Shown here piece by piece: positions 38,612 through 63,613 of a stretch of DNA of 64,000 nucleotides. The stretch comes from Amoebidium appalachense. Taxonomy: Eukaryota; Protista; Ichthyosporea. Under the pieces are notes generated by a model that ran no database searches, was not told where the DNA came from, and saw only the letters and a list, made by a program, of their open reading frames with translations. The DNA is taken from NCBI GenBank assembly GCA_963693365.1, contig CAVNZM010000002.1, positions 6,399,943 to 6,463,942 on the forward strand, read 5' to 3'. A program made the position numbers and the translations under genes. Numbering within the stretch: position 1 is the first letter of the stretch; each line of letters begins with the position of its first letter.

Positions 38612-41600
38612 ATGGAGGACACCCCATGCGAGGACGTGTGTCCCTCAGACACGGAGGGGACCTCAGTTAGCACCGGACAGTGCATACGTGTGCCACCAGC
38701 AATAGTCACGCAGGTAAGAAGAGGAGAGGGAGGGAGGGAGGGGGGGGGGGGGGGAGGGGGAGGGGGGGGGGGGGGGAGGGGGAAAGGGTGTTAGAATTTG
38801 AGCGGTTCAAGGGGTAATGTAAGGTTTACGTTGCTGGTTGGCTTGAGTTGAGATGGGCGGGCAAAGATAGAAATCGGAGAGGAGATAGGAGAGGTCGTGG
38901 ATGGGAAAGAGAGAGAGCACATTTTACGAACCCTTAGCGTGTAAAGTGCTACGTTGGGGTGGTTGGTTTACTGCTGCTTTGCCCTTGGGATGCACCGTAC
39001 GGGTTCTCCTTGATGGTTGCCAACGCCCGATTGTGAAATGTGCTACTCATACGGCCGCATGGGTGTGTTCTGTACAGACGTGCTCCTTTGTGTTTGACGA
39101 GGGAGAGGATATTCTGGGCCAGGAGGATGGGAGGCTGGGTGTGCCACCAAGCCCGGGGAGATTGAAGGTGGGCAATGTAATGTTACACGCACATACACGC
39201 ACGCACAGAGGTCATAGACAGTGAGAAACATGCTTGATGTACACCTCCTTCGATTGACCTCTTATTCTTTATCGCTGCGCTTTAGCGAAACCGCAAGAGA
39301 AGTTTATATATCCACTTGAAATACTTGCATCACACACCGGAGGAACATTGAAAATAACTGGTTGGGCTTTGACATCAATTATCAATTTGATAGCCCATGC
39401 CGTAGAGTCGCAATTTTGCTTTGGTGCCGGTGCTCGTTTTTGGGGGAGGTGGAAAAGGGAAGGGAGGGGAGGGGAGAGAGGGGGGTGAGGGGGGAGGGGA
39501 CGGGATGAGGGGGGGGGGGGGGAGGGGGGGGGGGGGGGGTGCACTACCTGGAATGGTGGGTGCATCGGCAATCATTGGGCCAATACATCAGCCCCTCCCC
39601 CCCGCCCCTCTCTCTGTCCCCTCCCCCCCGGTCCACATCCCCACCGCGAGCTTTTAGCTTAACACATAATAAGGGAAGGGATTTTTGCACAAGATGCACC
39701 GTTACATACACACAAACATATGTGTGTGCATCCAACCATATTTCTGCAGCGGCATTTTTTTTTTTTTTTGGGGGGGGGGAGGGGGGGAAGGAGGGGGGAG
39801 GAGGGGGTGGGGGTGGGGGGGGGGGGGGGGGGGGGGGGGGGGGGGGGGGGGCAAGAGGGTTAACAGGACATGAGTCTCGCTCACGTTTAGGTACGGAGAA
39901 TTACACGTCTGGTAGTTTAGGGGTATACATTGCTTTCGCTTATGTTTATTAGGGTGTTTATCATAGCCAGATCAAAAACAACAAGGAAGTTTGAAAAGGC
40001 GAGACACACATATGTGCTCTCTTTGCTCTCTTACACATTCCCATATCTTGTTATCTAACAGACGTACCACACGACATACATACACACACAGGTTCATCGG
40101 GGGCATCCACACAGGCATGCACGTACACGCACACAGTTGTGTGTACACACACACACACAATACACCACTACATGCGCACGCACACACACGCACGCACACA
40201 CACACACGCTCACACATGCACATAAACACACACACTTACGCACCCATGCCCGCCCACCCATCCGCACGCGCGCATAGACACGCACGCACACACGCACGCA
40301 CGCACACACGCACGCACGCACACACGCACACACACACACACACACACACACACACGCACACACACACACACACACTATGGACCCGCTAGACCCCGGGGAA
40401 CCGCGTACTTGAGAGGTAAGTGATGAGCAGTCTTCTTTGTGACTGGGGCACGCGGGAAGGGGGGGGGCCGGGAGGGGTCACTGGGCAAGGCCGGTGTTGT
40501 TGGGAAAGGACATCCCCCCCTGCCCCCCCTCCCCCCTATTTCCTTGTTCTCTCTTCTGTGCATGTATGTGTGTGTGTGTGCGCATGTGTGTCTGTGAGTG
40601 TCCGTGCACACGTACGCGTGCGCCCGTTGAGGTGTGCTCGTCGTGTGTGTGTGTGTGTATTGTGTGTGTGTGTGTGTGTGTGTGTGCGCGGGGGGAGGGG
40701 GGGGGGGGGGGCGCATTTCTATGTGTGTGTGTGGAGCAAGGTTGGGGTTTTGTATTTACCGCCCTTTGTACGGGCAGGGCCACCTCTGTGTATAGTGACA
40801 CCAGCAGCCTCAACTCGGTGTCTATGGCCCAAAGCGTATGCAACATCCTCCCCCCCCCTCCCCCCCCCCCCCCTCCCTTGACCACACACACACACACACA
40901 CACACACACACACACACGCGCGCGCGCGCACACACACACACACACACACACACACACACACACACACACACACGTGTAGGCTGCACCACACATACACAAA
41001 AGATATGGGCAGGCCTGCATGCGTGTTTGTGCGTGCCCACACATCCACACACACATACCACACACACACACACACACACACACATATGCACACACACGCG
41101 CGCGCGCGCACACACACACACACACCCTTCCCCCGCACACACACACACAACACACACACGGAGGCAACCACACCTTGACTCAACATACCTTCTTTCCCTA
41201 CCATTGCTCTATCCATTTCTGGGAGCCCTGGCCATTTCTTTCAACACATTTCCCGATGCTTGTTGGTGTTAAGCAACTTGATGTGCTGGTTGGTGTATGG
41301 GTTGGAGAGGAAGAAGGTAGTTTAGGACAAAGGTGCAAAGGTGATCAAGAAACCCCTGTTTTGGTCTAAGCCAGCGTCACAGACACAGAGCCGTGTTTTT
41401 CATGCAAGGCCACAACCGAACATTAATCACTGCAGTTACGTCCAAACGTCCTCACATTCACATCCACATACACACACACACACACGTGCGCGCACATACA
41501 CTCGCATGCGCGCGTGCACACACACACACACATCACATACACAAACACACACATTGAACAATCTCACCAACACAACTGCACGGGCACACCCACATCCAGG

Positions 41601-62600: not shown

Positions 62601-63613
62601 TTTTTGGGGGGGGGGGGGGGGGGGGGGGGGGGGGGGGGGGGGGACGAAGCAGAGGTTCAGATTCTTTATTGGCTTTTACTGGCAGTCTGTGTATAAATGC
62701 GCTCTCCCCCTCTCTGCCCTCCCCTTCCCATCCTCACTGTTGCCCTTCTCTCCCTTCACTTCCTTGTCAGGAGTTTGATGATTGTTGCAAAAATTGCACG
62801 ACGGGGGGGGGGGGGGGGGTGGTTTAGAAAAATGCATTGGTTGCCATGCAGAATACACAAAGGGAGGGATGTAAAGGGCCACCACACCAACACGGTTTGT
62901 AGTGCTCTGTGTACATCCCACCCTTTTACGTTTGTGGGTGTTGTTGTAGCTGGCTTGGAGATGGTACTAACCTTCCGTCCGCCCTCTGTCGCCTCCTCCC
63001 ATCACCCCACTCATATTTCCTCCCCCCCCTCCCCCCTCCCCCCTCCCCCTCCCCCCCCCCCCCTGCCCCCGCTCCCCCTCCCTCATTTCTCTCACCCAAC
63101 CCTGCGCTAAACACACAAACACACGCAGGCACACACATACACACGTATGCACACACACACAACACACACACGCACACGCACACGCACACACACACGCACA
63201 CGCACACGCACACACACACACACACACACACAAACACGCATGCGCGCTTACCCCCCCCCCCCCCCCCCCCCTCCCCCCCCCCCCCCCCCCCCCACCCACC
63301 CACCCACCCACCCACCCACCCACGCATACACACACACAAACACAAACTAACACACACACACACACACACACACACACACACACACACACACACACACACA
63401 CACACACACACAGATGCACGTTTTGCCATCAGCATTCGCGACAGTGATGATGTCGGGCGCAGCAGCAAGACATATTCGTGCTTGGTGCCTATGCACACAG
63501 CAATGGGTGGGGACGAGCCCAGAACAGTCACCATGCAGGTGGGGAGGGGGGCAAGGTGCTGGGGTTTGCTGACCATGCAAATACGGTTGAGGTGGCTGCC
63601 CCAGCCTACTTAG
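38612..63613 (+). CDS. Two-TM receptor-like SHIP-type inositol polyphosphate 5-phosphatase (TM, Cache-like ectodomain, TM, HAMP-like, IPPc, C2), ~30 exons, ~1080 aa
   Basis: Phase-consistent exon chain: 38612-38713, 39078-39167, 40390-40415, 40778-40835, 41894-41963, 42445-42590, 43757-43889, 44851-44975, 45803-45929, 47122-47230, 48143-48261, 49961-50068, 50591-50679 (uncertain), 51575-51661, 52056-52136 (or -52115), 52623-52764, 53120-53208, 53689-53824, 54201-54274, 55521-55662, 55995-56170, 56718-56824, 57360-57446, 58285-58447, 59111-59215, 60085-60162, 60636-60746, 61583-61663, 62400-62487, 63414-63613. The 5-phosphatase motifs are all present: [61 protein letters not shown]. Confidence 0.88.
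43886..44420. repeat. Minisatellite (~22-24-bp unit, [27 protein letters not shown]) starting exactly at a splice donor
   Basis: More than 20 related units with higher-order structure. The unit reproduces the exon/intron junction GCAC|GTGGGTAGAA at 43889/43890. Confidence 0.9.
45447..45802. repeat. Minisatellite, 31-bp unit TAGCATGCACACAGTACCTCGTATTGACATG, ending exactly at a splice acceptor
   Basis: About 11 copies, becoming more divergent upstream. The last copy supplies the CACACAG| acceptor at 45802. Confidence 0.92.
48696..49537. mobile_element. Non-autonomous DNA transposon (~840 bp) with bipartite TIRs, TA-flanked, inside an intron of gene 4
   Basis: Outer IR: TAGCCCCCAATATCGGCCCC (48696) vs reverse complement TAGCCCCAAATTTCGGCCCC (ending 49537). 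Inner IR: GTGGGGCCTCCCAAGGATTCAATT (~48779) vs reverse complement GTGGGGCCTCACAAGGATTCTAATT (~49411-49435). The AT-rich, non-coding core contrasts with the flanks. Confidence 0.75.
54409..55556 (+). repeat. 246-bp direct duplication (54409-54654 and 55311-55556) of an intron 3' end plus the first 36 nt of an exon
   Basis: The two copies appear identical at offset 902. Both end in ccacag|GAGTGTGTGTATGGTGCAAACAGTGAGGAGCACTTC. Confidence 0.92.
54655..55310 (+). mobile_element. 656-bp insertion with 89-bp terminal direct repeats and internal CCAAT-CCAAT-TATA / AATAAA signals (LTR-like or partial-tandem retroelement)
   Basis: 54666-54754 equals 55222-55310 with one mismatch seen. TTTGATTGGCTCAG occurs twice (~54927, ~54970), TATATAAG at 54999 and AATAAA at 55200. 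It sits between two copies of a 246-bp host segment. Confidence 0.65.
59289..59463. mobile_element. Degenerate short MITE / foldback element
   Basis: Perfect 10-bp ends CCGAAAACGG...CCGTTTTCGG, with patchy inverted similarity extending inward (AGGTCTT/AAGACCT, TGATTGG/CCAATCA). Confidence 0.5.
60636..63613 (+). other. C-terminal C2-like domain as found after the phosphatase in SHIP1/SHIP2
   Basis: The last exon [45 protein letters not shown] aligns by eye to the SHIP2 C2 end (DQHLLLTVKSMD..ECVVALKSMIG..FLSHRGEETGNIRGSMKVR, from memory). Confidence 0.65.
61377..61582 (+). repeat. ~200-bp perfect (CA)n tract running directly into a splice acceptor AG
   Basis: (CA)n..CAG|TTGCTC at 61582/61583. 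This is the longest microsatellite in the window. Confidence 0.95.

Follow-up and report, generated by a model that had tools for sequence, protein, structure and literature searches.

Control of phosphoinositide 5-phosphatases normally works through recruitment. Direct linkage of a sensor to a lipid phosphatase is represented by the voltage-sensing phosphatases, which carry a four-helix S1-S4 voltage sensor, a PTEN-like Cys enzyme and a C2 domain, and another functional precedent is PTPRQ, a receptor-type protein tyrosine phosphatase that acts on phosphoinositides. Here, a gene at 38612-63613 (+) was analyzed in 64,000 nucleotides (nt) of Amoebidium appalachense DNA (contig CAVNZM010000002.1, positions 6,399,943 to 6,463,942; 'the window', to which all coordinates refer). 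The gene is predicted to encode a divergent double Cache (dCache) ectodomain between two transmembrane helices (TM1 and TM2), followed by a HAMP-like domain, a SHIP-like inositol 5-phosphatase and a C2 domain. Voltage-sensing phosphatases likewise link a membrane sensor directly to a phosphoinositide phosphatase and C2, but here there are two TMs, a predicted chemical sensor and a Mg-dependent INPP5 fold (PF22669).

The input half resembles the bacterial and archaeal dCache_1-TM-HAMP receptors, whose outputs include, in the available parts of two surveys, chemoreceptors, histidine kinases, cyclases and SpoIIE phosphatases (PMC4822843, PMC8915833). Order and spacing are the same (TM1, long helix, double Cache, TM2, HAMP, cytosolic enzyme), whereas here the output is a eukaryotic inositol 5-phosphatase-C2 unit, the ectodomain is glycosylatable and the amino-acid motif is lacking. 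Eukaryotes also have bacterial-type Cache inputs with other outputs, among them a Naegleria Cache-cyclase, plant and fungal histidine kinases and alpha2delta (PMC4822843, available part).

A predicted receptor and an inositol polyphosphate phosphatase (INPP) are joined in one chain in the G-protein-coupled receptor (GPCR)-INPP bigrams of oomycetes and Nannochloropsis, seven of which occur in P. infestans and for which direct activation is only proposed (PMC5784254, PMC6033456, each available in part). A first-pass annotation of this DNA had held that known SHIP/INPP5 enzymes are soluble, which overlooked these fusions (PMC5784254, available part). Their input is a seven-helix GPCR, in contrast to the two hydrophobic regions and Cache-HAMP found here, and the accessible text on them mentions neither HAMP nor C2. 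The output half is shared with SHIP1, SHIP2 and the SHIP-like loci L181-L188, in which a 5-phosphatase is followed by a SHIP-type C2; unlike SHIP, the protein has two TMs, a short L4 loop and a 43-residue insertion, and no SH2 or PH-like domain. Each half is known, as is the principle of coupling receptor and enzyme, while the pairing of Cache-HAMP with a 5-phosphatase appears to be new.

Gene model and transcript evidence

Twenty-eight exons were joined into a single stop-free frame of 1058 amino acids (aa), with borders tested by script; acceptors were AG throughout, and donors comprised 26 GT and one GC. The features were as follows.

38612..42581 (+), N-tail, predicted cytosolic, aa 1-103; exons 38612-38713, 41894-41963, 42445-42590; open frame with GT/AG sites
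42582..43816 (+), TM1, aa 104-126, split by intron 42591-43756; hydropathy 2.53; aligns to TM1 of the bacterial dCache profile
43817..52628 (+), ectodomain, aa 127-468, on the basis of end-to-end profile score and sequons; exons 43757-43889, 44851-44975, 45803-45929, 46540-46602, 47122-47230, 48143-48261, 49961-50068, 50623-50750, 51575-51661, 52056-52136
52629..52694 (+), TM2, aa 469-490; hydropathy 2.22; covered by spliced contigs
52695..53700 (+), HAMP-like domain, aa 491-547; exons 52623-52764, 53120-53208
53701..53793 (+), likely helical extension and short Pro-rich linker, aa 548-578; exon 53689-53824, shared with the first phosphatase strand
53794..60162 (+), inositol 5-phosphatase domain, aa 579-899, on the basis of PF22669, PDB 5-phosphatases, motif alignment and spliced joints; exons 53689-53824, 54201-54274, 55521-55662, 55995-56170, 56718-56824, 57360-57446, 58285-58447, 59111-59215, 60085-60162
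55620..56080 (+), Gly/Asp-rich insertion of about 43 aa within the phosphatase, aa 647-689; both exons covered by contigs
60636..63613 (+), SHIP-type C2 domain, aa 900-1058; exons 60636-60746, 61583-61663, 62400-62487, 63414-63613 including the stop

RNA from four of 16 listed runs was placed on 50980-61370. The spliced contigs (X1 and X2) came from one sample, were available as contigs only, and their RNA label is a guess. Seven of the 12 joint rows belonged to X1 at depth 80 (52134/52621, 52763/53119, 53823/54200, 54271/55518, 56170/56718, 56820/57356 and 59214/60084); the remaining five were repeat artefacts of run X3, which aligned to repeats only, and nothing aligned from run X16, so that these two runs gave no support. 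Record 5 of X1 measured 3401 nt at depth 80, and its three listed pieces agreed with the model to the base. From the equal depth, we infer that this record carries every depth-80 joint, an assignment backed by bin depths equal to 80 x exon length / 347 in seven bins. By calculation, its 3' end falls at 63697, directly ahead of a poly-G run, which supports the four final exons and the stop at 63613, also the gene end of the first-pass annotation.

Three junctions singled out in that annotation were examined. Those at 52764/53120 and 53824/54201 were listed joints in X1 and X2; for 53208/53689 there was no listed row, and record 7 of X2 spanned it by connecting the exon of TM2 with that of the linker (53689-53824) over 98 nt, a length equal to the middle exon plus unaligned edges. 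Farther upstream, the last two ectodomain exons were covered at depth 80, and the join 50750/51575 appeared as a loose end in X2 that continued for at least 255 nt. Upstream of 51575 the contig extended 1370 nt vs. 1230 nt in the model, which gives it room for the 5' exons and a surplus of 140 nt. Exons ahead of 50623 lie outside the RNA-covered part of the gene, and their borders were predicted from sequence.

No Met occurs from aa 503 to 707, and the phosphatase therefore has no start of its own; its first strand and the linker lie on one exon. Fusion of TM2/HAMP to the phosphatase in one transcript is thus well supported, and is not a reading artefact: a separate phosphatase gene was rejected by the missing Met, the shared exon and the spliced joins. 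The earlier claim of a single transcript stands for the splicing from the ectodomain end through the phosphatase, while the borders of earlier exons rest on prediction.

The one consistent frame reported previously was kept, but the approximately 30 exons and 1080-aa open reading frame became 28 exons and 1058 aa, and the N-tail was shortened from about 155 to 103 aa; the extra 140 nt of the contig may be untranslated region or exons. The start codon and exon number of the N-tail are uncertain, exons 41894 and 42445 being recovered by an independent exon-chain script and 38612 not. That script recovered most 5' exons, and differed at the first exon and at the uncertain borders between 46540 and 50640. 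Candidate extra 5' exons, placed by eye and unconfirmed, were noted at 39078-39167, 40390-40415 and 40778-40835. There may also be a 24-nt micro-exon at 50315-50338, with an alternative in-frame path 49961-50049 / 50315-50338 / 50640-50750.

Exon 52056 ends at 52136 with the GC donor, adding 7 residues, and the joint 52134/52621 in the spliced contig demonstrated a GC-AG intron at 52137-52138; a GT donor at 52116 was rejected accordingly. An extra exon at approximately 56550-56612 was also rejected, as joint 56170/56718 skips that stretch.

The acceptor and first ~35 nt of exon 55521 are present twice, as part of a 246-bp stretch that is perfectly duplicated in direct orientation (54409-54654 / 55311-55556); splicing in the contigs runs to the downstream copy. 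A multi-copy element of 656 bp that contains direct repeats of 89 bp separates the two (depth of the element 750-1100 vs. 80). Either an insertion that produced an exceptionally long target duplication or a join made in assembly may account for the arrangement.

Topology, ectodomain and HAMP-like relay

Only two hydrophobic regions were found, with peaks of 2.53 (TM1) and 2.22 (TM2). Four Lys/Arg residues lie immediately ahead of TM1, basic residues also lie behind TM2, and all six N-glycosylation sequons fall between the TMs (Asn 6/16 inside vs. 0/16 outside, Fisher p = 0.018). Hydropathy, flanking basic residues and sequon placement together predict an N-in, loop-out, C-in topology.

For the region between the TMs, three bacterial dCache receptor profiles were used, with 63 sequences (motif-picked), 79 sequences (the same plus Pfam-picked) and 56 Pfam-picked sequences (borders cut with the profile of 79); a profile of 23 four-helix-bundle (4HB)-HAMP sequences served as control. 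Aa 444-513, a stretch that takes in the final Cache strand, TM2 and helix 1 of HAMP, aligned without gaps to the dCache-TM-HAMP profiles at 25.4 and 27.4 bits, and aa 423-513 did so at 26.1 bits on the profile of 56 Pfam-picked sequences. The last strand-TM2-HAMP stretch scored 32.7 bits on dCache vs. 12.8 on the 4HB-HAMP control, TM1 with its helix 11.6-14.5 vs. -1.9, and the RNA-supported junction 32.7 vs. 24.8 for the shorter, non-RNA junction. Aligned end to end without TMs, the ectodomain reached z-scores of 5.0-6.3 on all three profiles, equalled by 0/200 shuffles and 0/229-234 unrelated real segments (reversed sequence, -0.7 to 8.4). The layout is that of dCache_1 (PF02743), with an inter-TM region of ~300 aa, a long helix behind TM1 and a last strand ahead of TM2. 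The region is accordingly best described as a predicted divergent double Cache. An Atlas query with one ectodomain exon gave no usable match, and a PDB sequence search with three exons gave nothing useful. The first Tyr and the Arg of the dCache_1AA amino-acid motif (PMC8915833, available part) are missing at the aligned place, where the exons are RNA-unconfirmed, and an amino acid is an unlikely ligand.

HAMP helix 1 is clear, led by Pro after TM2 and ending in Gly (14.1 bits, 0/1000; z about 8). Helix 2 is divergent: anchored by eye, it gave z 2.9-4.3 (1-8/1000) with hydrophobic spacing kept, was missed by local HMMER and has one extra residue, and the connector is ~10 residues longer than in bacteria. 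The whole HAMP gave z 6.7-7.9; Pfam HAMP_2 scored 12.2 bits, below its 24.3 cut-off. All 10 best named Atlas matches were in the HAMP family or clan, with scores <0.9 that make them a lead only. The first-pass layout of TM-dCache-TM-HAMP-helix-5-phosphatase-C2 is thus backed by the spliced contigs and profile tests.

Phosphatase and C2 domain

PF22669 matched four exons, two of them above cut-off. INPP5 5-phosphatases have two signature motifs ~60-75 residues apart (PMC6563779), and both are kept here (aa 784-792 and 860-868). Positions N587, E614, K724, H744, D787, N789, Y843, R865, D890 and H891 agree with the aligned enzymes (catalytic roles in part from PMC5550278). The ~43-aa insertion is missing from the 11 other aligned rows. 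C2 follows directly behind the phosphatase, as in SHIP; a structure model of the last exon found no Foldseek match at E 0.001.

The nearest phosphatases were soluble SHIP-like loci (L181-L187), one with PF24147 above cut-off, and identity to L184 was 45% over 270 columns. The final tree used 23 of the 46 rows of an earlier quick tree, left out most long-branch rows and was built without animal SHIP. It placed the domain on the SHIP+INPP5E side (100/99) and with the SHIP-like rows (67/86), and grouping with INPP5E-like rows was not rejected (p-AU 0.36). An INPP5B/OCRL identity was rejected by the tree and by the missing ASH or RhoGAP. The SH2 and PH-like domains of SHIP are absent: only ~30 aa separate HAMP from phosphatase, and the N-terminus consists of TM and ectodomain.

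The L4 loop is short, as in INPP5K and synaptojanin, and also in SHIP-like L188 and L232. In SHIP2, a long L4 loop bears the 3-phosphate arginine R682 (PMC5550278). A preference for phosphatidylinositol 3,4,5-trisphosphate (PI(3,4,5)P3, PIP3) is therefore not predicted, and the earlier label 'SHIP-type' is apt for the phosphatase-C2 unit, though not for the L4 loop or this preference. The substrate is likely phosphatidylinositol 4,5-bisphosphate (PI(4,5)P2), with PI(3,4,5)P3 possible.

L186 (2910-9066) and L182, a marine metagenome contig, show a SHIP-like 5-phosphatase-C2 and then, by eye, PH-like and RhoGEF-like frames, perhaps in one long gene. In L246 (2225-8788), an open frame of 2188 aa combines a SHIP-like 5-phosphatase and a C2-like stretch with another 1600 residues.

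Proposed mechanism and alternatives

Our preferred reading, which we hold by a little over an even chance, is one two-pass protein acting as a ligand-switched, probably dimeric receptor with a SHIP-like 5-phosphatase-C2 output. By analogy with bacterial Cache-HAMP receptors, a small-molecule ligand would bind the membrane-distal Cache pocket of a dimer, and motion would pass via TM2 and HAMP and alter the contact of the enzyme with membrane phosphoinositides. In bacterial dCache receptors, ligand-induced change passes via the next TM helix to the output (PMC8915833, available part). From general helix geometry, HAMP and ~25 helical residues would put the linker tens of angstroms under the membrane, and the phosphatase-C2 would therefore need to double back over a linker of ~10 residues to reach lipid. 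The HAMP state would determine how the enzyme docks or how far apart two enzymes lie, and would leave the active site unremodelled. Ligand binding, dimerisation and enzyme activity are put forward as predictions.

Several results weigh against this proposal. The ectodomain scored 44-53 vs. 71-210 in bacterial dCache controls, under every control. Its core alone, examined for the two PAS-like modules expected of dCache_1, gave z 2.9-3.6 on two profiles and a non-significant 1.4 (16/200) on the third, local HMMER gave 3.7 bits (3-4/1000), or 0.3 bits (38-45/1000) without the last strand, and the hhalign probability was 7.6%. No Pfam match was found on any ectodomain exon, the exons being scanned singly, and the anchoring of segment ends on TMs gives the real sequence an advantage over random ones. 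HAMP helix 2 contains an insertion, and its position was chosen by eye; all RNA is from one sample, as contigs labelled RNA by guess; and the layout is known from no second species, hence conservation cannot be shown.

An alternative is an ungated version of the fusion, in which Cache-HAMP would be a decayed receptor, now a membrane-anchoring, dimerisation and targeting module for a constitutive phosphatase. We consider this rather unlikely, although it accounts for the weak core match, the missing amino-acid motif, the long HAMP connector, the helix 2 insertion, the Pro-rich linker ahead of the enzyme and the one known copy. Against it, the spacing that leads from the final Cache strand across TM2 into helix 1 of HAMP is gapless over 70-91 columns, beyond an anchor's needs, and the ectodomain is still full length.

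A ligand-gated receptor might instead act on soluble inositol 1,4,5-trisphosphate or inositol 1,3,4,5-tetrakisphosphate (IP4) and so end signals beneath the membrane, with a stalk that keeps the enzyme off lipids. The inferred length of HAMP and helical extension against a 10-residue linker would suit this, and IP4 is also turned over by SHIP2 (PMC5550278), but the retained SHIP-type C2, responsible in SHIP2 for the orientation of the enzyme at the membrane, and the tree position among SHIP/INPP5E-like enzymes make it improbable. Least probable of all, an outside region that is not Cache, or 5' exons on another transcript than the phosphatase, would fit RNA support starting at 50623, middle exon borders that vary between predictions and the lack of a curated profile over cut-off on any ectodomain exon, but is opposed by the upstream reach of the 3401-nt contig, the 50750 to 51575 connection in X2 and the end-to-end and control-profile tests.

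It is about evenly balanced whether this is the first chemoreceptor-type lipid phosphatase, in which a bacterial Cache-HAMP arm directly gates a SHIP-like enzyme and, within one protein, turns an outside chemical into PI(4,5)P2/PIP3 patterning, as one of several independent sensor graftings onto SHIP phosphatase-C2. If true, HAMP would drive a monomeric-type lipid enzyme, and the protein could become a tool with which membrane lipids are put under chemical control. The GPCR-INPP proteins raise the question of direct control by a fused receptor, and a ligand is hard to find there (PMC5784254, PMC6033456, available parts). A Cache ectodomain can be produced alone and a HAMP locked by mutation, which makes the receptor-phosphatase question testable.

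Searches for the same layout

The first-pass annotation knew of no described protein of this architecture, and none was found in our sequence searches, in which single-exon queries of 44-54 aa or a mixed alignment make blanks weak. No same-layout relative was present among 2 and 28 matches, nor among the 120 of 7868 matches listed, all OCRL-like owing to the dominance of the scaffold. In 80 metagenome loci the dCache-HAMP profile matched no + strand open reading frame, and the TM2/HAMP exon gave one repetitive false match against representatives. Literature on the same layout was not found, subscription journals being outside coverage, and the available parts of two Cache surveys with their supplements (PMC4822843, 18; PMC8915833, 6) list no inositol phosphatase output.

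Surroundings of the gene

The window is intron-rich eukaryotic DNA, and the neighbouring genes are unrelated. A long UTP20 gene (1 to ~24800, -) runs off the window start and has one exon above the Pfam cut-off. Bestrophin-like exons at 27258-28318 (+) gave weak Bestrophin_2 matches below cut-off, with the gene start seemingly near 25665. A calcium-binding EGF-repeat gene at ~32516-36796 (+) has, by eye, a hydrophobic tail resembling a glycosylphosphatidylinositol signal. Short degenerate tandem repeats occupy the intergenic stretch 30790-31075.

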